A DNA stretch of 64,000 bases from a phage. Below are positions 354-64,000 of the stretch, piece after piece (position 1 is the stretch's first letter; each line of letters begins with the position of its first letter). The position numbers were made by a program, and so were the translations under genes. Under the pieces are notes generated by a model. It was not told where the DNA came from and did no database searches. It saw only the letters and a program-made list of their open reading frames with translations. Location: assembly GCA_029742005.1 (NCBI GenBank), contig GCA_029742005.1_4113.1. One strand, given 5' to 3'.

Positions 354-452
<99 letters not shown>

Positions 453-472
453 TATAATAAAGGTGATTTAAT

Positions 473-688
473 ATGAAAGTCATTATCAATCCAGCAGGAA
501 ACTTTTTTGGTGAGGTTTTCGGTGCAGACTGTGTTGTGCAAAATTTTCCACGAATTGAAATTGACGGAATTGATGTTCAACAATATGGAAACCTGTACTA
601 TGTAGTTGATGAGACTGGTTCTATTGTTCATGACAGTGCTTTCTTTACAAAAGAAGAGATGAAGCACTTAATTGTACTGGATACATAA
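473..688 (+). CDS. hypothetical protein (71 aa)
   Basis: ORF track; AAGGTGA-like RBS upstream of ATG. Confidence 0.5.
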   Translation: MKVIINPAGNFFGEVFGADCVVQNFPRIEIDGIDVQQYGNLYYVVDETGSIVHDSAFFTKEEMKHLIVLDT

Positions 689-689
689 A

Positions 690-872
690 ATGACACACGA
701 AGAATGGATGTCCAAACAGTATAAAGAACATGACTGCTTTGGGAATGGTATTCGTCAGGTACATTATGATATTCTCAAAGATATAAATTTATTCATAAAA
801 TATGTTTTGGATGAAAATAAACATTGGTTTATATATGAGATTGCATATAGAAACTCAAATAAACAAAAATAA
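690..872 (+). CDS. small hypothetical protein, MTHEEW-family paralog
   Basis: Internal ATG of ORF 672..872 giving N-terminus MTHEEWM; paralogous to 172, 1382, 1543. Confidence 0.5.
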   Translation: MTHEEWMSKQYKEHDCFGNGIRQVHYDILKDINLFIKYVLDENKHWFIYEIAYRNSNKQK

Positions 873-886
873 ATAAGGAATATATT

Positions 887-1105
887 ATGGAAACAACGTT
901 ATTTGAAGTTATTCAAGCATTAAAAACTGGTGATGACATTCAAGTATTGCTACATGGTTATCGTTTAAAAGGCACTGTGGTTTTAGTTAATGACACAACG
1001 TTAGTTATTGCCGAAACAAATCCATATGATAGTAATCAAGTTGCTAATATCCATATTGATATTAAAAGCATTATTGGTGTAGGCGTAAATAAAAATCAAG
1101 AATAA
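887..1105 (+). CDS. hypothetical protein (72 aa)
   Basis: ORF track; AAGGAA RBS. Confidence 0.5.
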   Translation: METTLFEVIQALKTGDDIQVLLHGYRLKGTVVLVNDTTLVIAETNPYDSNQVANIHIDIKSIIGVGVNKNQE

Positions 1106-1184
1106 CAAATGTTTTTGAAAAAACCAGAAAATGAATGATTTTTTTTGGGACAACTCAAAAATATATGATATAATAATTAGTACA

Positions 1185-1274
<90 letters not shown>

Positions 1275-1278
1275 ATAT

Positions 1279-1379
<101 letters not shown>

Positions 1380-1381
1380 CC

Positions 1382-1546
1382 ATGACGCATAAAGAATGGA
1401 TGAATGACATTAATTTTAGATATGCAGGTTTCGGTAACTGGAGAAAGTATCATTGGGAAATCATGTCAGACCCAGCAGAATACGATAAACTTATAAACCA
1501 TGAAGCGTATCCGTGGTTCTTTATTGAAATAATGGTACGAACATGA
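1382..1546 (+). CDS. small hypothetical protein, MTHEEW-family paralog (54 aa)
   Basis: Manually read ORF, N-terminus MTHKEWM; stop overlaps next start (ATGA). Confidence 0.4.
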   Translation: MTHKEWMNDINFRYAGFGNWRKYHWEIMSDPAEYDKLINHEAYPWFFIEIMVRT

Positions 1547-1707
1547 CACATGAAGAGTGGATGAAACGCCAAAAATTAAAGTGGAATCCTTATTATCTCT
1601 CGTTAGAGCCGAGAATGTGGGATGTGATACGTGTTAAATGTATGTACAAATCATTTCTTTGTGATATAATGGATGTTGAAGTTCTGATGCATATTGTGTA
1701 CAGATGA
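1543..1707 (+). CDS. small hypothetical protein, MTHEEW-family paralog (54 aa)
   Basis: Manually read ORF, N-terminus MTHEEWM; translationally coupled to 1382..1546. Confidence 0.4.
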   Translation: MTHEEWMKRQKLKWNPYYLSLEPRMWDVIRVKCMYKSFLCDIMDVEVLMHIVYR

Positions 1708-1717
1708 TTAAAAAAAG

Positions 1718-2131
<414 letters not shown>

Positions 2132-2188
2132 CTAAATAATTCAGTACCAAGGAGATTAATATGTTTAAAGATGAACGTCCAGATTTGT

Positions 2189-2226
<38 letters not shown>

Positions 2227-2589
2227 GAATTCCACAATCAGACGTATATGGTGTAAGTTACGTCGATGCAATCCAGAACAAGATCTCTGGTACTCTAGGA
2301 AGTGGTGAATGTTAACCTAGACGGGTTTGATAATTGGACGATAGGCAATTATTACTTGACTAGCAGGTTTAAACTAGAGGTGATAGTCCTTCACCAAACT
2401 GGAAAACCGGATGGACTTTTATTTAAAAGGGTAAGGCGTGGAAATATGTTTACAGAAGTTGCTTTTAGTAGCCTGTACGCCCCACGTCAAGGTAGCCGAA
2501 AGGCAAGTTAAAACGGGTGGTTATAAAGCTGAATTAACAGCGGCGTTTAAAAGCGTCACCATCCATTTTTTTTAATTAAAGTTGGTGAT

Positions 2590-2979
<390 letters not shown>

Positions 2980-3004
2980 TATTCAGTACTGATATAATTA
3001 ATTT

Positions 3005-3241
<237 letters not shown>

Positions 3242-3314
3242 CTTTTTAATTTAAAAGTACTTTACTGTAGTGTTTAGTACCGTATAATGTAAACAAAAGG
3301 ATAAAATAAAACTC

Positions 3315-3839
<525 letters not shown>

Positions 3840-3861
3840 TTAAAAAATCAGTACTTTATTA

Positions 3862-4152
<291 letters not shown>

Positions 4153-4153
4153 T

Positions 4154-4246
<93 letters not shown>

Positions 4247-4263
4247 TTCACATGATATAGGGA

Positions 4264-4749
<486 letters not shown>

Positions 4750-4833
4750 AAGAACGAAATGTAGACGGTTGTATTCAGTACTGAATCACATGGGGAGGTT
4801 GTGATTCCCGATTCAGTAGCTTATAAAGCAATT

Positions 4834-4939
<106 letters not shown>

Positions 4940-4958
4940 AGAGGTACTTCGAGTATGC

Positions 4959-5084
<126 letters not shown>

Positions 5085-5086
5085 TA

Positions 5087-5173
<87 letters not shown>

Positions 5174-5228
5174 GACTGCCAAACAGCTTGAAGTACTTTG
5201 TAGTGCTGCACCTATGCCGACACTTGGC

Positions 5229-5338
<110 letters not shown>

Positions 5339-5342
5339 ATCT

Positions 5343-5413
5343 GGTTGATTAGTTAAATGGTATAACACGGATCTTGTAAGTCTGAGTCATTAGTTCGATT
5401 CTAATATTGACCA
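5343..5413 (+). tRNA. tRNA-Thr (anticodon TGT), CCA not encoded
   Basis: Manual fold: T arm ATTAG-TTCGATT-CTAAT, anticodon loop CTTGTAA, D stem GTTA/TAAC; several G-U pairs in acceptor. Confidence 0.6.
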
Positions 5414-5466
5414 CAAATATATTCTTAGAAATAACATTTTTCTTGAAAATAAATACTCCATACTAT

Positions 5467-58676: not shown

Positions 58677-58868
58677 ATGTATAAAAACTTCTATATAAGT
58701 AAACTAAAAGAAAATGAACAAGTATGGATTAGATCTATAATTCCACTGGCATTTAATAGATATGCATTTAACAGATGTACCGAGATTGCTATAGACCCTT
58801 ATAATATTAAAGAGAATGTACAGTATAATCAGTACTACTATATCTTAATGCTTATATATAGAAAGTAA
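58677..58868 (+). CDS. small paralog-array protein, last member
   Basis: MYKNFYISKL ... ILMLIYRK. Confidence 0.5.
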   Translation: MYKNFYISKLKENEQVWIRSIIPLAFNRYAFNRCTEIAIDPYNIKENVQYNQYYYILMLIYRK

Positions 58869-59506
58869 TTAAACACAAGTAGACAGGGGAAGCTCCTAGT
58901 GAACAACCTTTATGTACAGGCGAATTGTTAAAATTCAGCCTGGACAAATGCGATCACTAGGATTCTCCCCAGGCTAAACCCCGTAATCATAGGTAGTCAT
59001 AAGTAATCATATATAAACATTTATATGAGCACCGTAGAATCACAGAATGATTATATATGATTCAGTACTGATTAGTATAGACAAGATTGCTCAAGAATGC
59101 ACGGAAATGTGTGTGAATGATTCAGTACTGATATCCCACTAAGTAGGCAGAGGAAGTCTGCCGTACTTTTTAGTTTCCAAGCTCCTTTTCCATTTTTCAA
59201 ATTACATCAAATGTAATCAAAAGTAATCACGCAATGATTAGTACTGAATTATTACTTTCACCTTAATTTCAATGACCCCTTTACCCTTCGGGGTAAAATT
59301 CCATTACCCCTTGAGGCTCCAGCAAAAAGTTGGTTAGTACTCCATCCTAAATCTCGATCCTAAAAATTTTGGAGTACCTATGAAATAAAAGTTGGATCTT
59401 CGAAAGTTGAAATTTACGTTGGGACGTTTATGATTTGTGGGATATAATGATGTTTGTAGTCGGGTAGTTCTCAAGAATATCAGTACTGAATAATGAAAGA
59501 AAGCTA

Positions 59507-59533
59507 TTGACATTATGATTCAGTACTGTATAA
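59507..59533 (+). promoter_or_regulatory. sigma-70-like promoter inside the ORF-free region
   Basis: TTGACATTATGATTCAGTACTGTATAAT; no ORF downstream. Confidence 0.5.
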
Positions 59534-59920
59534 TGTTCTACATAGCTTCAAGGGGTGATGAGTTGCTGCGAACAATTCATTTACTCTACCTCCTGTCGTG
59601 AGACAGTACAGAAAAGATAGTTCCTCCTGTGGTGGTACATCTTTTTGAACCTCATATGAAAATCGTAATAACAGTACTGATATTAACAGAATGGTGTCAG
59701 TACTGATTTTAATCTAAAGCATTATGCCACCAGCACAAGCTGGTGGATTCCCTCTAACAGTATTCAGTACTACATGATAGTCTTCATCCTCCTAGGGTAA
59801 CATAGTGAGGGCTATGATGGCAGTACTGAATACTCCCTTTCAAAAGATAGATCTATGGTATAGTACTGACGGATTTTGGGCGTAGTTACCCTGGATGGAT
59901 TTTGGACGTAGATATGTCTA

Positions 59921-60060
59921 GCCCTCCAGAAGTCTGGAAGTAAAGATGGCTATCCATCTAGACGGCTAAACGGCTAGATTTCTGGATGGCTGGATGGCTA
60001 GACGTTTGGACGGCTAAACGGCTAGATGGTTACACGTCTGGAAGTATAGACGGCTAAATC
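59921..60060. repeat. cluster of short direct repeats (iteron-like)
   Basis: GACGGCTAAACGGCTAGAT x2, GTCTGGAAGTA x2, multiple GGATGGCT copies. Confidence 0.6.
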
Positions 60061-60220
60061 AAAATTTTATTTTGTTTTTTCCAATAGTTCCCCTACCGCG
60101 TGGGGATAGTTTCCCCGCAGTATCTGGAGTTAGATTTTTCTGAATCTGGAATCATTATCTTATAAACTGGGGGCAATGTCAACCGCCTGGACGGATATTT
60201 TTAAAAATTTTTTCAGTACT

Positions 60221-60295
60221 GAATTTTGGGCGTAACTATGCACCCGGTGGGCTATAGTCTTTCTCGACTTGATGGAACTATTATACAGTACTGAA
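60221..60295. repeat. ~70-bp repeated element, copy 1
   Basis: GAATTTTGGGCGTAACTATGCACCCGGTGGG...; related copies at 60436 and 63774. Confidence 0.5.
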
Positions 60296-60435
60296 AAAAT
60301 AAAGCAATACCCTGGAAGCAAAAAAGTTTTAATTAATTTGCTTGCCATCCTGGGCCGTACTATGGTACTATATTTCAGTACTGAGAAAGTGCGTTTACCT
60401 GCTAGGGTGCGGGAGTGTATCCTTTTTTTATATCT

Positions 60436-60505
60436 TGAATTTTGGGCGTAATTCCGCACCCTCTGGGGTTTCCGCTTTCTCGCGTCTATGTAGTAATTAT
60501 ACGCT
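60436..60505. repeat. ~70-bp repeated element, copy 2
   Basis: GAATTTTGGGCGTAATTCCGCACCCTCTGGGG...TAGTAATTATACGC. Confidence 0.5.
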
Positions 60506-60816
60506 TTTTCAGGATCAAGTCAATACCTAAAAACAAAATAATTGAAAATAATTTAACGCGTTTAAACGGCCCGTAACGCCCTGGAATGATTGGAATGGTG
60601 CAAATGTATAGCTTAGGTGTATTAATGCGTTAGAATGCGTCTGAGGCCGTTTTACGGGGTATGGGGATGATTTAGTGGATTGATTCAGTACTGAATGATA
60701 GTACTACTATATAGAAAGATAGTTCCCCTGGATGGTTGCAGTACTGAATGATAGTACTGAATAATAGTTCCCCTATATAGAAAGAAAACTATTTTAAAAG
60801 TATTTGTAGAAAGTAC

Positions 60817-60876
60817 TTGCAAACTATGTTTAACGGCGTATAATGTTTTACATCGAGAGCGGGAACACTTCCCGCT
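60817..60876 (+). promoter_or_regulatory. class C cassette: sigma-70-like promoter plus GC-rich leader hairpin
   Basis: TTGCAA-N16-TATAAT then hairpin GCGGGAAC...TTCCCGC. Confidence 0.6.
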
Positions 60877-60899
60877 ACACTTTAAGAGAGATTAATACG

Positions 60900-61262
60900 A
60901 TGGCGACTCAAATCACTAAAATCATGCTTAACCTGGTAAACTTCCGCGATGAGATGAAAGGTCTTCCGGCTGAAACTGTAAAAATTCACATTGCAGCTTA
61001 TCGGGAACTTATTGCAATGTTGCCGCTTAAGCGTGAACAATACGCCGCTACTTTGATGCTTGATTCAATGATCCATATAATGATCTCAAATGATTTAACG
61101 ATGGTTTATCAGTATATGGGTGAATTGTTCGCGGTGTATAGTAAACCAGTACCAGGAATGGAAAGTACAGAAGTATTACACGGTTTAAATTTAAAACAAG
61201 ATGCATGGGATAATATGCCTCGTTTCCTGGTATGGGCTGACAGTGGCAAGATTTACGAATAA
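60900..61262 (+). CDS. hypothetical protein
   Basis: Internal ATG (MATQITKIM) downstream of leader hairpin. Confidence 0.55.
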   Translation: MATQITKIMLNLVNFRDEMKGLPAETVKIHIAAYRELIAMLPLKREQYAATLMLDSMIHIMISNDLTMVYQYMGELFAVYSKPVPGMESTEVLHGLNLKQDAWDNMPRFLVWADSGKIYE

Positions 61263-61276
61263 GTTTTAGAAAGTAC

Positions 61277-61335
61277 TTGCAAACTAAGTTTAAAAGCGTA
61301 TAATGTTTTACATCAGGTGGGGAATAGTTCCCCAC
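61277..61335 (+). promoter_or_regulatory. class C cassette: promoter plus leader hairpin
   Basis: TTGCAA-N16-TATAAT then GTGGGGAA-TAG-TTCCCCAC. Confidence 0.6.
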
Positions 61336-61355
61336 TATATAAGAGGATTAAAAAA

Positions 61356-61595
61356 ATGGCTAAATCAAAAATGTTCTTGGGTCACAAAAACAAAACTCAT
61401 TGGAATGTAAGCCTTTGGATTAATAACGATGAGTCATTGTACCGGTTGGCCCAGGACTTTATTGCCGCCAATACTAATCGCAATGATGCGGCCCGTCATA
61501 TGATGTTATTTTTAGAACAGACTGGACAATATAAAACACCGGACGGATTCAAATATAGCACTACTGCGATCCGTGCGGCGATGGTTGGAATGTAA
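61356..61595 (+). CDS. hypothetical protein
   Basis: ATG after AGAGGA RBS (MAKSKMFLG). Confidence 0.55.
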   Translation: MAKSKMFLGHKNKTHWNVSLWINNDESLYRLAQDFIAANTNRNDAARHMMLFLEQTGQYKTPDGFKYSTTAIRAAMVGM

Positions 61596-61680
61596 TAGAA
61601 TTTATTTAAAGTACTATCGCAAAAAATGATAGTACTTTATAATAGTGTTTTATTCATACACCAACGATAAGGGCAACAGC

Positions 61681-61947
61681 ATGAATATTAAGTATTTTGC
61701 GACGCGTGAACAAGCTCGGATCGCCGCACGCCAGGACGGGGCAACGTTTAAAGATATGGGCGTACAATCGGAACGTGGTAAACGTTGGGCCATTATAAAG
61801 CGTAGTACCGCCAGATCATTACAGTACTGGCTATCTGCTTTAAAGCGTCCTGATAGTGTATCGCGTCGCGTGGTAGAAATAAAGCACGACCGCAAGGGCA
61901 ACCGCGTTACTGTGTACAGTACTAAAAAGATAGCAGTACTTGAATAA
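61681..61947 (+). CDS. hypothetical basic protein
   Basis: ATG after AAGGGCAA (MNIKYFATREQ). Confidence 0.5.
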   Translation: MNIKYFATREQARIAARQDGATFKDMGVQSERGKRWAIIKRSTARSLQYWLSALKRPDSVSRRVVEIKHDRKGNRVTVYSTKKIAVLE

Positions 61948-61953
61948 AAGTAC

Positions 61954-62022
61954 TTGCATACTATGTTTAAAGGCGTATAATGTTTTACATCAGGACGGGG
62001 AACGAAATAAGTAACTTCCCGT
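61954..62022 (+). promoter_or_regulatory. class C cassette: promoter plus leader hairpin
   Basis: TTGCAT-N16-TATAAT then ACGGGGAAC...CTTCCCGT. Confidence 0.55.
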
Positions 62023-62071
62023 TAAGTAGCCCAGGAGTAAGGCACACGAAAAACTCCCCTGATAAAATAGT

Positions 62072-62099
62072 TTGACAAATGTTTTTAAAAGCGTATAAT
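62072..62099 (+). promoter_or_regulatory. sigma-70-like promoter
   Basis: TTGACA-N16-TATAAT upstream of ORF 62132. Confidence 0.55.
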
Positions 62100-62131
62100 A
62101 CTTACATCAACTACTGAATGAGGGTTACAAA

Positions 62132-62743
62132 ATGAAAACTATCACTACTACTACTTTCGTTATGGCTTTTTCTGAATTGAACGCAGAACAACAAACGTCA
62201 GCTATCGAACTGGTTCGGGATCGGGAACGTTCAAGCGGTGATGATTTCTTTTCTGAGTCAGTGATCGAGTACTATAAAGAAACAGTACTACCAGAATATG
62301 GAATTGATGACGCTGATTTGCAATTCAGTGGTTTTTGGTCGCAGGGTGACGGTGCATCAATCAGTACTGACCACGTTGACGCAGTGAAGTTTTTACGCAA
62401 GATTAAAGCATTAACTAAGTATCGTTCTATCCGTCACCTGCTGAATGAAGATGATTTGGCGATGAGTGTAAAGCGTTCTCACTCCCACTACTCGCATGAA
62501 AACACTGTAAGCGGGTACATTGAATCGGGGTACACTGATTTAACCGCAAAACAAGAAACGTTAGTTAATGAGCTTGAGGAACTACTCACTGAAACTATTC
62601 GTGAATTATCCCGCAAGTTGTACCGTGATTTAGAGAATGCATATGAGGATCAATTCACTACTGAAAACATTACGGCACTGATTGAGGGTAACGAATATCA
62701 ATTCAATGTTATTGATGGCGTAGTAGAATCTATCGAATATTAA
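62132..62743 (+). CDS. hypothetical acidic protein (203 aa)
   Basis: ORF track; GAGGG RBS. Confidence 0.6.
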   Translation: MKTITTTTFVMAFSELNAEQQTSAIELVRDRERSSGDDFFSESVIEYYKETVLPEYGIDDADLQFSGFWSQGDGASISTDHVDAVKFLRKIKALTKYRSIRHLLNEDDLAMSVKRSHSHYSHENTVSGYIESGYTDLTAKQETLVNELEELLTETIRELSRKLYRDLENAYEDQFTTENITALIEGNEYQFNVIDGVVESIEY

Positions 62744-62799
62744 TTCAGTACTGAATCAATGGCGGGAGTGGTTCCCGCCTATAACCAGGAGTAAGCATC

Positions 62800-63033
62800 A
62801 TGTTCGAACAAATTCAAACGACCACAAGCCGGAGCGGAACGAAAGTACATTACATCGCTGATACTGATAAAGGTGTACCCTATTGTGCTGTACACGTAAA
62901 TACTGACGGTGACTATTGGTTAACTGTATACGGGCGTTACTCGTTTGCTTTTAGTGCACATTGTAAGATCCTGGAAGTAGTGAAGCCTACCGGTAAGAAT
63001 ATCACGCCGGGAAAATGTTTTACTAAGCACTAA
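62800..63033 (+). CDS. hypothetical protein, paralog of partial ORF at 63955
   Basis: N-terminus MFEQIQTTTSRSG vs MLEQIKSTSSNVTG. Confidence 0.55.
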   Translation: MFEQIQTTTSRSGTKVHYIADTDKGVPYCAVHVNTDGDYWLTVYGRYSFAFSAHCKILEVVKPTGKNITPGKCFTKH

Positions 63034-63040
63034 AAAGTAC

Positions 63041-63101
63041 TTGCATACTAAGTTTAAAAGCGTATAATACTTTATATCGAGGCGGGGGAATGGTTCCCGC
63101 C
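63041..63101 (+). promoter_or_regulatory. class C cassette: promoter plus leader hairpin
   Basis: TTGCAT-N16-TATAAT then GGCGGGGGAA-TGG-TTCCCGCC. Confidence 0.6.
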
Positions 63102-63119
63102 TTTACTGAGGATTATCTA

Positions 63120-63407
63120 ATGAGCAAAGTAATTAACTATACAGTACTAAGCAAGTCATTATCTATTAGCCAGTGCACCGATGGTTTTTGGCTGTACGAT
63201 GAAACGCGTGGCATGAATTTAGCTATGCGGGAGAAAACTGCTGAGGCGGCGTATTTACAAGCCCTGGAATACTACCAGGAACGTTTAAAGGAAGTAGAAA
63301 ACAATTATCAAAATTTAAAAGAGAAAGTAGATAATTTCGTTGGTCAATTCGTTGACGATGACGAGGAAGACGGGCACTACTGCAACCGTTGCGGATCTTA
63401 CAATTAA
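63120..63407 (+). CDS. hypothetical protein with C-terminal CxxC
   Basis: ATG after GAGGA RBS (MSKVINYT). Confidence 0.55.
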   Translation: MSKVINYTVLSKSLSISQCTDGFWLYDETRGMNLAMREKTAEAAYLQALEYYQERLKEVENNYQNLKEKVDNFVGQFVDDDEEDGHYCNRCGSYN

Positions 63408-63411
63408 GTAC

Positions 63412-63471
63412 TTGCAATTAGTTTTCAGTACTGTATAATGGTTTACATCAAAGGGAGAAATGGTTCTCCCT
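63412..63471 (+). promoter_or_regulatory. class C cassette: promoter plus leader hairpin
   Basis: TTGCAA-N16-TATAAT (spacer has CAGTACTG) then AGGGAGAA-ATGG-TTCTCCCT. Confidence 0.6.
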
Positions 63472-63489
63472 GGTAATGAGGAAAATAAA

Positions 63490-63711
63490 ATGGCTAATAT
63501 CACTACTCTTTCCCAACTGGAAGCACTGGTTAAATCTATGCGGGAACATGCCGACAAAATCGGCGTACAAGATCCAGCCGTTTGCTTTTGCGACGAATTG
63601 AATGATGATACCCTGGTAATAGCAGAAGTCCAGGACGTTTCTAACTATTCCTCGCGTTACACTGGCGGCGTAGCAAATAAAGGTGACTTCTGTTTATACC
63701 TTACAAAATAA
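63490..63711 (+). CDS. hypothetical protein
   Basis: ATG after GAGGAA RBS (MANITTLSQ). Confidence 0.55.
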   Translation: MANITTLSQLEALVKSMREHADKIGVQDPAVCFCDELNDDTLVIAEVQDVSNYSSRYTGGVANKGDFCLYLTK

Positions 63712-63773
63712 CAACGCGGGGAGATAATAACTCCCCGTTACTTTTTCAGTACTGAATCATTTAATAGACGGAT

Positions 63774-63826
63774 CTATGCACCCGGTGGGTTAGTGACTGT
63801 TTCGTCTTGATGTAGTAATTATGCCA
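63774..63826. repeat. ~70-bp repeated element, copy 3
   Basis: TCTATGCACCCGGTGGGTTAGTGACTGTTTCGTCTTGATGTAGTAATTATGCC. Confidence 0.45.
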
Positions 63827-63879
63827 GTACTGGATGCACTTGTCAACAATTATTTTTCAAATACTTTTTATTAAAATAC

Positions 63880-63933
63880 TTGCAATTAGTTTTTAAACGC
63901 GTATAATGTTTTGCATAGGGGGAGCGGTTCCCC
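63880..63933 (+). promoter_or_regulatory. class C cassette: promoter plus leader hairpin
   Basis: TTGCAA-N16-TATAAT then GGGGGA-GCGG-TTCCCC. Confidence 0.6.
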
Positions 63934-63954
63934 TGGTAACTAAGGAATAATAAA

Positions 63955-64000
63955 ATGCTTGAACAAATCAAATCAACGTCTTCGAATGTAACGGGAACGG
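63955..64000 (+). CDS. hypothetical protein, 5' partial at window edge
   Basis: ATG after AAGGAA RBS; ORF runs off the window. Confidence 0.4.
   Translation, partial: MLEQIKSTSSNVTGT

Follow-up and report, generated by a model that had tools for sequence, protein, structure and literature searches.

Probable promoter-driven structured RNA elements in the terminal repeats of RaK2-like jumbo phages

In T4-like phages, dispersed repeats of ~100 bp known as PeSLs occur among small early ORFans and combine a strong sigma70-like promoter and an A/T-rich upstream region with a stem-loop terminator, in modules that are subject to shuffling (PMC2839356). The put elements of phage HK022 are RNAs of ~70 nt with two long stem-loops, stem I containing a triplex, that bind the zinc-binding domain of the RNA polymerase β' subunit (PMC9378689). 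In the long terminal repeat of PA5oct, a related jumbo phage, RNA sequencing defined two non-coding RNAs (ncRNAs) of 236 and 451 nt, each accounting for a few percent of the phage reads and with no reported promoters (PMC7318152). Here, we analyse a family of dispersed repeats in a stretch of 64,000 nucleotides of phage DNA (GenBank assembly GCA_029742005.1, contig GCA_029742005.1_4113.1), hereafter referred to as the window, in which an earlier note had pointed out three related copies and proposed that they might be small RNA genes, regulatory repeats or miniature mobile elements. We consider it very probable that the repeats are promoter-driven structured RNA elements. In line with the first two proposals, a sigma70 promoter precedes every copy by a fixed distance, and the transcribed part is conserved in the manner of an RNA, with compensatory changes and variation that tolerates G·U pairs. 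A search of the 40-kb PA5oct repeat with the covariance model of the family (R1) returned no member (best E = 1.1), and the ncRNAs of that phage are an analogy only, unrelated to the family. Literature searches on phAPEC6, RaK2, Asteriusvirus, PBECO4 and 121Q turned up no description of the elements and no transcriptome of a RaK2-like coliphage; the family is apparently undescribed, whereas the general kind, i.e., phage small or leader RNAs with promoters of their own, is already known.

Repeat copies, promoters and RNA module

The three copies lie where the earlier note had placed them, and a repeat search returned them as one family (D6) at 60231-60284, 60447-60500 (67%) and 63769-63822 (76%), here called copies 1, 2 and 3. 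Their similarity is above chance, with z = 14.0, 17.3 and 6.7 for the pairwise local alignments against shuffles. An independent profile hidden Markov model (HMM), built from members in other genera only and with all Asteriusvirus sequences excluded, found exactly these three copies (E = 6e-8 for copy 3, 1.6e-6, and 4.7e-5 for copy 1) and, beyond them, one weak plus-strand site (E = 0.07) and nothing else in the 64 kb. With R1, the copies are matched on the minus strand at 63760-63811 (51 bits), 60438-60489 (46.9 bits) and 60222-60273 (41.8 bits), and a diverged fourth member is matched on the plus strand at 60377-60428 (15.8 bits, E = 0.29), which is accepted despite its weak score because its position is conserved in other genera. 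The intervals of the earlier note were right as to place, but the informative strand is the minus strand and not the plus strand; moreover, their right ends take in the -10 hexamer, and copy 3, given as 63774-63826, loses the final 8 nt of a conserved hairpin that ends at 63766. A plus-strand reading gave no promoter and no consistent structure and was dropped once the minus-strand promoters were found. The promoters, the fourth copy and the wide distribution of the family had escaped the note, and what it took for a partial copy near 59869 is an 11-nt motif, TTTTGGRCGTA, that has no covariance-model or HMM match.

The conserved repeat consists of the -10 hexamer and the first ~50 nt of the predicted transcript. 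Members were collected by pattern search from the direct terminal repeats (DTRs) of the phages vB_Ec-M-J, Muenster, fENko-Kae01, Munch and XbC2 and from RaK2-like IMG/VR contigs (~350 kb). Every occurrence of CCC-N3-4-GGG(T/C)G in these DTRs and contigs is preceded by a promoter (102 distinct members), and R1 gave 122 matches, 108 of them distinct, in 312 kb of the same loci. Among 111 distinct members, 83% match TTGACA-17-TATAAT in at least 10 of 12 positions at the fixed distance, compared with 1.9% of random positions in these loci; the -35 hexamer is TTGACA or TTGACT in 89, and the spacer measures 17 nt in 81, of the 111 distinct upstream contexts. All four window copies have a sigma70 promoter with the -10 hexamer ending ~13-30 nt upstream of CCC, and they match the consensus in 11/12, 11/12, 9/12 (plus strand) and 9/12 (copy 1) positions. 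Since each unit has a sigma70-type promoter, host RNA polymerase could fire it upon DNA entry. The structured module begins within a few nt of the predicted transcript start.

The module comprises ~46 nt and is made up of an optional 5' hairpin (P1), a linker ACUAA, and the hairpins P2, (A/G)CCC-N3-4-GGGU, and P3, GGGUGS-N4-8-SYRYCY. The core (A/G)CCC-N3-4-GGGUGS-N4-8-SYRYCY with P2/P3 pairing is present in copies 1-3 (41.8-51 bits) and in the plus-strand copy (15.8 bits); GGGUGCAUAGAUCCGUCU is a stretch within the predicted RNAs. P1 has a stem of 3-4 bp and a purine-rich loop (GAGAAA, GCGAAA or AGAUAA). The stem sequence is freely variable (GAC/GUC, CGC/GCG, CCA/UGG, GGC/GCC and GAG/CUC), each of its four pairs is altered on both sides in 22-40 sequences, and these are the column pairs of highest mutual information, with none of 500 shuffles giving covariation as high as that observed. 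P2 is paired in 99-100% of 109 distinct sequences, with a loop of 3 or 4 nt and a single break. Substitutions in its CCC strand are matched, as CCU/AGG in two unrelated members, CUC/GAG in an orthologous pair, and U·G in the plus-strand copy of the window, while the outer pair is A-U in 84 and G·U in 24 sequences, and modelling of P2 adds 9-16 bits for the members with compensatory changes. Either loop length was allowed in the P2 counts; the alignment of a second model, R2, is restricted to a single loop length and puts the 4-nt-loop class out of register. In P3, the invariant GGGUG pairs with g14-g18 (g1 with g18 to g5 with g14) in 92-100% of cases, other registers reaching at most 62%, and variation in the 3' strand is limited to C/U opposite G and A/G opposite U. 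Because these variants would be A/C mismatches on the complementary strand, selection acts on the promoter-sense RNA.

The invariant GGGU belongs to both P2 and P3, which therefore cannot coexist. Their mean energies are -4.25 ± 0.5 and -2.9 ± 3.1 kcal/mol, respectively, and P3 is the more stable hairpin in 38 of 102 members; these near-equal values suggest that the module could be bistable and act as a conformational switch. The structure was drawn from the patterns of variation because other approaches gave little: single-sequence folding yielded weak z-scores (-0.3 to -2.2) and inconsistent structures, and RNAalifold on the model alignment returned only a 3-bp P2. As for the covariation that the earlier note had proposed to check, P1 shows it, P2 has compensated changes, and P3 shows one-sided variation only. 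An alternative hairpin in copy 3 (AUAGA-UCCG-UCUAU) is not retained in the vB_Ec-M-J orthologue and was discarded. A coding role was likewise rejected; the 3- or 4-nt loops break any reading frame, there is no start codon, and open reading frames (ORFs) such as 60160-60459 on the minus strand span two promoters.

As for the individual copies, copy 1 (60222-60307, minus strand) has the -35 hexamer TTGCTT at 60307-60302, a 16-nt spacer and the -10 hexamer TATAAT at 60285-60280, with a predicted start at ~60273. Its promoter is absent from the promoter scan because the -35 hexamer matches in only 3/6 positions, and was read from the sequence. The RNA core, 60273-60222, has P1 GUC-GAGAAA-GAC, P2 GCCC-ACC-GGGU and P3 GGGUG/CGCCC. 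Copy 2 (60438-60523, minus strand) is the most conserved member and is directed to the predicted physical left end of the DNA, ~1.3 kb off; its promoter (11/12) has TTGACT at 60523-60518, a 16-nt spacer and TATAAT at 60501-60496, with a predicted start at ~60489, and its core, 60489-60438, has P1 CGC-GAGAAA-GCG, P2 ACCC-CAGA-GGGU and the same P3 as copy 1. No clear terminator follows copies 1 and 2.

Copy 3 (63705-63846, minus strand) is predicted to be a complete small transcription unit. The promoter (11/12) is composed of TTGACA at 63846-63841, a 17-nt spacer with TG, and CATAAT at 63823-63818, with a predicted start at ~63811. In the core, 63811-63760, P1 is GAC-GAAACA-GUC, P2 is ACCC-ACC-GGGU at 63790-63780, and P3 is formed by 63783-63779 with 63770-63766. 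The 3' part continues with CAGUACUG into a bidirectional terminator hairpin, scored on both strands, at 63737-63717 with a U-rich tail, ~50 nt after P3, and the predicted RNA is ~105 nt. The fourth member (60342-60430, plus strand) is convergent with copy 2 and has a promoter TTGCCA-18-TACTAT at 60342-60371 (9/12). Its RNA, at ~60378-60430 and predicted to be ~55 nt, has P1 GUAC-UGAGAAA-GUGC, P2 CCU..GGG with a U·G wobble, where CCU replaces CCC, and P3 GGGUGCG/UGUAUCC at 60404-60423, which with the T7 that follows makes up a predicted intrinsic terminator. Two of the four window copies, therefore, run into terminators.

Terminal-repeat setting and distribution of the family

The window at 59800-64000 is 92-95% identical to Asteriusvirus jumbo coliphages (PBECO4, 121Q, phAPEC6 and relatives; ~350 kb), and judged by this sequence it comes from a PBECO4/121Q-like coliphage of that genus with a genome of ~350 kb. 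In vB_Ec-M-J (locus L003), DNA homologous to the window begins 660 bp into the record, within an annotated DTR of 21,525 bp, and in fEgEco12 such DNA is found at 1055-1404. The DTR of fEgEco12 measures 20,993 bp, with termini established by PhageTerm and restriction digests (PMC13070987). Based on the homologous positions in the vB_Ec-M-J DTR and in fEgEco12 with its confirmed termini, the physical left end, i.e., the DTR start, is predicted at ~59141 of the window.

Members are present in at least five genera: Asteriusvirus, Alcyoneusvirus, Mimasvirus (by record taxonomy), the unclassified Munch/fENko-Kae01 group, and further IMG/VR contigs that are putatively Eneladusvirus fHe-Yen9-04-like and GAP32-like. 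There are ~10 per genome, grouped in a single region of at most 20 kb per ~350-kb genome; in genomes with known termini, this region is the DTR. With R1, no member was found outside the DTR in 59 kb of the window, and none lies between the DTR ends and the ends of the loci of vB_Ec-M-J and fENko-Kae01 (L006). All exact-pattern matches in IMG/VR are on RaK2-like contigs. A pattern scan of 596 Gb of bacterial genomes gave 17 scattered matches of at most 21 bits, compared with 32-59 bits for most phage members, and we regard these as chance matches. A host-derived mimic (tRNA, rRNA or small RNA fragment) was rejected, as there is no blastn match in 5,426 Escherichia coli genomes at E up to 1. At the Rfam gathering threshold only tRNAs pass in the window; at E up to 10 nothing relevant was found in 58800-64000, and nothing in four DTRs totalling 85 kb. 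ARAGORN placed no tRNA at the RNA elements. The tRNA genes of the window form a cluster of seven at 376-5414, which includes a tRNA-Ser with the unusual anticodon ACT at 3901-3992 (Rfam tRNA score 49.9 bits) and a tRNA-Gly at 376-448 called by ARAGORN only.

The block of copy 2 stands out by its conservation, with 52 nt that are 96% identical in the Salmonella phages Munch, 7t3, SE_PL and PHA46, and 88% in XbC2. The whole-genome average nucleotide identity (ANI) between the coliphage and those Salmonella phages is ~29% (PMC13070987). Measured from the record start, the block is at 1.0-1.1 kb in Munch, fENko-Kae01 and XbC2 and at ~1.3 kb in Muenster, the records of 7t3, SE_PL and PHA46 not being deposited from the terminus. 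At 1.0-1.3 kb from their left ends, Muenster, fENko-Kae01, Munch and XbC2 have a convergent pair equivalent to copy 2 and its plus-strand partner. So strong a constraint, with 96% identity over 52 nt at an ANI of ~29% and a position ~1.1-1.3 kb from the physical end in those genomes whose termini are known, argues for an important early role of RNA and not of protein.

Three arrangements of the units are seen: singles that run into bidirectional terminators, convergent pairs, and units directly upstream of a gene's own promoter. Convergent pairs account for 37 of 112 members, with 10-32 bp between the modelled ends, and copy 2 and the fourth member form such a pair. Under strict criteria a downstream terminator is predicted in 15 of 112 distinct members, with the hairpin ending 46-56 nt after P3 in 12 of these; P3 is followed by at least five U in 9 of 112, including 60377-60428 on the plus strand. 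No terminator separates the plus-strand singles from the genes downstream, which have their own promoters. In many plus-strand members in relatives, a terminator hairpin overlaps the -35 hexamer (e.g., GGGGTTGACTTCGGTCGGCCCTTTT), with the promoter of the next gene on the other side. About 30-40% of the members, and three of the four in the window, are antisense to the uniformly plus-strand genes; because both orientations occur, autonomous units fit better than mRNA leaders.

As for the genes in the vicinity, none is convincing at 58950-60840 of the window, and from 60900 on there are small plus-strand genes, all of them equipped with a TTGCAA-16-TATAAT promoter of their own and a 5' hairpin. 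In a Pfam search of seven neighbouring small ORFs, DUF7249 alone was above the curated cut-off and gave no functional clue; the sub-threshold matches, to DUF1033 and HVO_A0114, are weak and uninformative. Copy 3 is the one that lies between genes in a GC-richer module, as the earlier note had observed, the GC content being 0.39-0.40 in that part of the window and 0.31-0.39 in all earlier 2-kb bins. At 3130-3700, vB_Ec-M-J has a different gene and a convergent pair of RNA elements where the window has ORF 61681-61947, and the homology resumes exactly at the AAAGTACTTGCA promoter. Differences in copy number between close relatives are cassette swaps bounded by promoter repeats. In SHEFM2K (L002) at 2745-3543, and in genomes H24, H28, H29, H32-H37 and H46, short 'hypothetical proteins' are annotated over RNA elements and the non-coding leader. 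SHEFM2K and the SD-series Salmonella phages are among the genomes with such calls (e.g., PHANOTATE calls of 30-70 aa), which are probably spurious, and the elements serve as a warning to annotators in this respect.

The leader and the terminal repeats contain further features. TTTTGGRCGTA occurs four times in the window, always on the plus strand (59874, 59900, 60224 and 60440), and is the complement of the P3 3' strand plus tail of copies 1 and 2 (UACGCCCAAAA). Its two tandem copies, TTTTGG(G/A)CGTA at 59874-59884 and 59900-59910, constitute repeat family D15 and are not members of the RNA family, and a sequence resembling the motif is found in the Klebsiella phage fENko-Kae01 at 641-660, ~640 bp from the left end. 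Two more sigma70-like promoters, at 59507-59534 on the plus strand (12/12) and 60182-60154 on the minus strand (11/12), have no gene or member downstream; the latter is followed by GGGGAAACTATCCCC-type hairpins. The palindrome AGTACT is present 236 times and CAGTACTG 63 times in the 64 kb, an estimated excess of roughly 10-fold and 100-fold, respectively, over the expectation from base composition (sites at, e.g., 59063, 59123, 59481, 59521, 60214, 60286, 62746, 63426 and 63747). Within 58900-64000, non-coding DNA, promoter spacers (CAGTACTGTATAAT) and the positions immediately before -35 hexamers (AAAGTACTTGCAA) hold many of these palindromes, which could be bound by a phage regulator or could serve as a signal for modification or processing.

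Closer to the end, an inverted pair of Chi octamers (CCACCAGC-ACAA-GCTGGTGG) is located at 59727-59746, ~590 bp from the left end, and at 484-503 in fENko-Kae01 and Munch. In the first 23-30 kb of four phages, i.e., the DTRs and a few kb more (L003, L006, L007 and L008), the plus strand has GCTGGTGG 7-12 times and CCACCAGC twice, a strand-biased enrichment that suggests a means for the phage to cope with RecBCD at its DNA ends. Near-consensus Fur boxes such as GATAATGATAATCATTTAC (17/19) are found at 787, 1306 and 2422 in L005, at 775, 2342 and 7309 in L006 and at 776, 2343 and 7434 in L007; the Klebsiella and Salmonella relatives carry them in their terminal leader and between convergent pairs of RNA elements, and the window, vB_Ec-M-J and XbC2 have no such box. 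At 59957-60056, in the non-coding leader ~0.8 kb from the DNA end, the window has an 8-bp-periodic array (GGATGGCT, AGACGGCT and AAACGGCT; periods of 8, 16, 24 and 48 according to TRF) that may consist of protein-binding sites, and fENko-Kae01 has Fur-box-like repeats in the corresponding place. A near-terminus motif at 59338-59380, GTACTCCATCCTAAATC...GATCCTAAAAATTTTGGAGTAC with the inverted repeat GTACTCCA/TGGAGTAC, is kept in fENko-Kae01 (85-130) and is a candidate packaging or terminase signal. Lastly, the hairpin TAGTTCCCCTACCGCGTGGGGATAGTTTC at 60085-60113 matches the Escherichia coli type I-E CRISPR repeat (GAGTTCCCCGCGCCAGCGGGGATAAACCG) in 17 of 29 positions, GTTCCCC and GGGGATA included; the match is probably due to chance because GGGGA/TCCCC hairpins are common in the region.

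Interpretation and rival explanations

Taken together, we lean towards a picture in which the repeats are small structured ncRNA units, early, specific to the lineage of RaK2-like jumbo phages and confined to their DTRs, with a P2/P3 module that is bound by protein. On this account, host RNA polymerase would transcribe the units as immediate-early small ncRNAs, which would accumulate in many copies during the first minutes of infection, and the terminal repeat probably enters the cell early. A host or phage protein would bind to the invariant P2/P3 module, which would then function either as a decoy (or sponge) or as its handle, while P1 would only stabilise the 5' end, like analogous hairpins on the neighbouring early mRNAs. 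A small RNA recognised by protein fits because the units occur in both orientations and as many paralogues, some have their own terminators, and there is no antisense target in the window; as a mechanism, protein binding in trans is put forward tentatively.

Several observations weigh against this account. The promoters, starts and ends of the units are predictions, and most members, copies 1 and 2 included, lack a recognisable terminator, so that their transcripts would continue into an adjacent promoter or gene or run towards the genome end. About one-third of the members have an A-rich leader of ~14 nt instead of P1. Because the 5' strand of P3 is invariant, the support for P3 comes from one-sided variation and not from true covariation; P3 is also weak in many members (+0.8 kcal/mol in copy 3), and P2 and P3 are mutually exclusive, so that either may be the active fold. 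That copy 2 keeps its position so close to the terminus may indicate a function tied to DNA ends instead of a generic decoy. No binding partner and no resemblance to a known protein-binding RNA was found, and the core has no antisense targets within the window. Likenesses to CsrA (GGA) and Hfq (ARN) sites, CRISPR repeats, boxA/boxB, ToxI, and preQ1 and guanidine-II elements were considered, and none is known to fit all members.

A cis-acting co-transcriptional element, where the nascent module acts on its own polymerase and, in the manner of HK022 put, suppresses termination or pausing, or where P2 and P3 are antiterminator and terminator of a minimal attenuator, is in our judgement unlikely; it would make transcripts from these promoters differ in behaviour from those of ordinary early promoters. 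The module always lies within a few nt of the transcript start, like putL (PMC9378689), P2 and P3 have a strand in common as in antiterminator/terminator pairs, P3 runs into the U tract described above in 9 of 112 members, and no terminator separates plus-strand singles from the genes behind them. However, 30-40% of the members point away from all genes, with copies 1 and 2 directed towards the DNA end, the downstream genes have promoters of their own, and most members lack the U tract; the module, at ~46 nt, is smaller than put with its ~70 nt, two long stems and triplex, and ten copies in 20 kb are unlike any known antitermination system. Replication-origin transcripts, i.e., R-loop primers such as those at T4 oriF and oriG or RNA II of ColE1, would have the convergent pairs, in which an A/T-rich spacer adjoins the RNA 3' ends, as bidirectional origins and copy 2 priming towards the left end. 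We give this very little credence, since ten origins within 20 kb and none elsewhere are implausible, converging polymerases would generate positive supercoiling that opposes unwinding, conservation of small hairpins at the RNA level is not expected of T4-type origins, ordinary terminators end some members, and the set of copies varies among close relatives. The reading would nevertheless agree with the T4-like replisome of these phages (PMC5259590), the A/T-rich DNA after P3 (columns g19-g30), the 37 members in convergent pairs, the leftward copy 2 kept 1.0-1.3 kb from the terminus across several genera, and a G-rich RNA segment that could form a stable hybrid with the template.

Alternatively, the units may be DNA-level cassettes, either PeSL-like promoter/terminator modules or protein-binding sites, with a main role as promoters and points of recombination and a transcribed part that has no RNA function. 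A terminator hairpin over the -35 hexamer, as in many plus-strand members, resembles composite PeSLs of T4-like phages (PMC2839356, PMC4122927), and the swap of a gene and convergent pair in vB_Ec-M-J, where homology resumes at the promoter repeat, is what such cassettes would give. These points are outweighed by the position of the conserved part, which is downstream of the promoter and has no Shine-Dalgarno sequence and gene at its end, by a core that is far better conserved than promoters or flanks, by the one-sided G·U-type variation and the compensated CCC/GGG changes, which are strand-specific RNA signatures, and by loops that vary between 3 and 4 nt, which is natural in a hairpin but not in a DNA-binding palindrome; DNA-level cassettes are therefore improbable. 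Mobility, the remaining proposal of the earlier note, and chance similarity have a negligible share. The copies are dispersed, intergenic and found in both orientations, as miniature inverted-repeat transposable elements (MITEs) or REP-like elements would be, and CAGTACTG flanks copies 1 and 3. This palindrome, however, is abundant across the window and belongs to the promoter spacer, target-site duplications and element-specific terminal inverted repeats are absent, and in each genome all copies fall within a single 20-kb region; the repeats are not MITEs. Chance is excluded because the independent profile gives E-values of 1e-5 to 1e-8.

A more speculative extension, which we regard as doubtful, is that the P2/P3 module is a bistable switch that, in 10-20 copies, works as an RNA-based device for host takeover, either as a decoy that titrates a host protein of defence or RNA metabolism or as a polymerase-riding element that reprograms host RNA polymerase. 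In the latter case, the positionally conserved convergent pair near the terminus (~1.2 kb) would be specialised for the DNA end, where it could protect the end, prime replication or help to process the concatemer junction. The ~20-kb terminal repeats of RaK2-like jumbo phages (PBECO4, 121Q, phAPEC6, RaK2, K64-1, Munch, GAP32 and CBB), which are under development for therapy, carry only strings of hypothetical-protein annotations. Beside these genes, each copy of the terminal repeat very probably has ~10 conserved, promoter-driven structured RNA units, and the family offers a testable way into the immediate-early programme of these phages as well as a candidate RNA family for databases.

Comparison with known systems

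As for PeSLs, many members of the family carry a terminator hairpin that overlaps the -35 hexamer, but among the window copies only copy 3 adjoins a terminator, and this at its 3' end. The 3' boundary of a PeSL is formed by the Shine-Dalgarno sequence and start codon of a gene, whereas in the RNA units the promoter is followed by a non-coding, covarying module of ~46 nt, in either orientation and often with no gene; copies 1-3 face away from the genes. A second repeat family in the window, at 60807-60877, 61267-61337, 61944-62014, 63031-63101, 63402-63460 and 63870-63935 (D1/D2), is composed of promoters of early genes (AAAGTACTTGCAA-N-GCGTATAAT). Between each of these promoters and the ribosome-binding site are ACATC and a hairpin, GGGGAA...TTCCCC, and it is this second family whose copies look like the true analogues of T4 PeSLs.

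Similarities to put include a structured non-coding RNA with two stem-loop units, the use of host polymerase, a phage early promoter, and a location near the transcript start in the case of putL (PMC9378689). In contrast to put, which has two copies per genome that are co-oriented with the genes they serve, the module is present ~10 times per DTR, with a third or more of the copies antisense. It is also smaller, with 3-4 bp in P1, 4 bp in P2 and 5-7 bp in P3, the latter two overlapping and mutually exclusive, and there is no sequence similarity.

Small phage RNAs of the lambda OOP type have their own promoter and terminator. Copy 3 and its paralogues are similar in that a promoter, an RNA of ~100 nt and a shared bidirectional terminator form a unit convergent with the upstream gene. 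Unlike OOP, the units overlap the neighbour only at the terminator and have no extended antisense target, and they are multi-copy with an invariant internal motif. P1, with its short stem and purine-rich loop (GAGAAA or GCGAAA), recalls boxB, but it is absent in about one-third of the members, its sequence is not conserved, and no boxA was found. The core is presumably unlike enterobacterial CRISPR repeats; the units nonetheless resemble the solitary repeat units of RNA anti-CRISPRs in being small, promoter-driven hairpin RNAs of phages.

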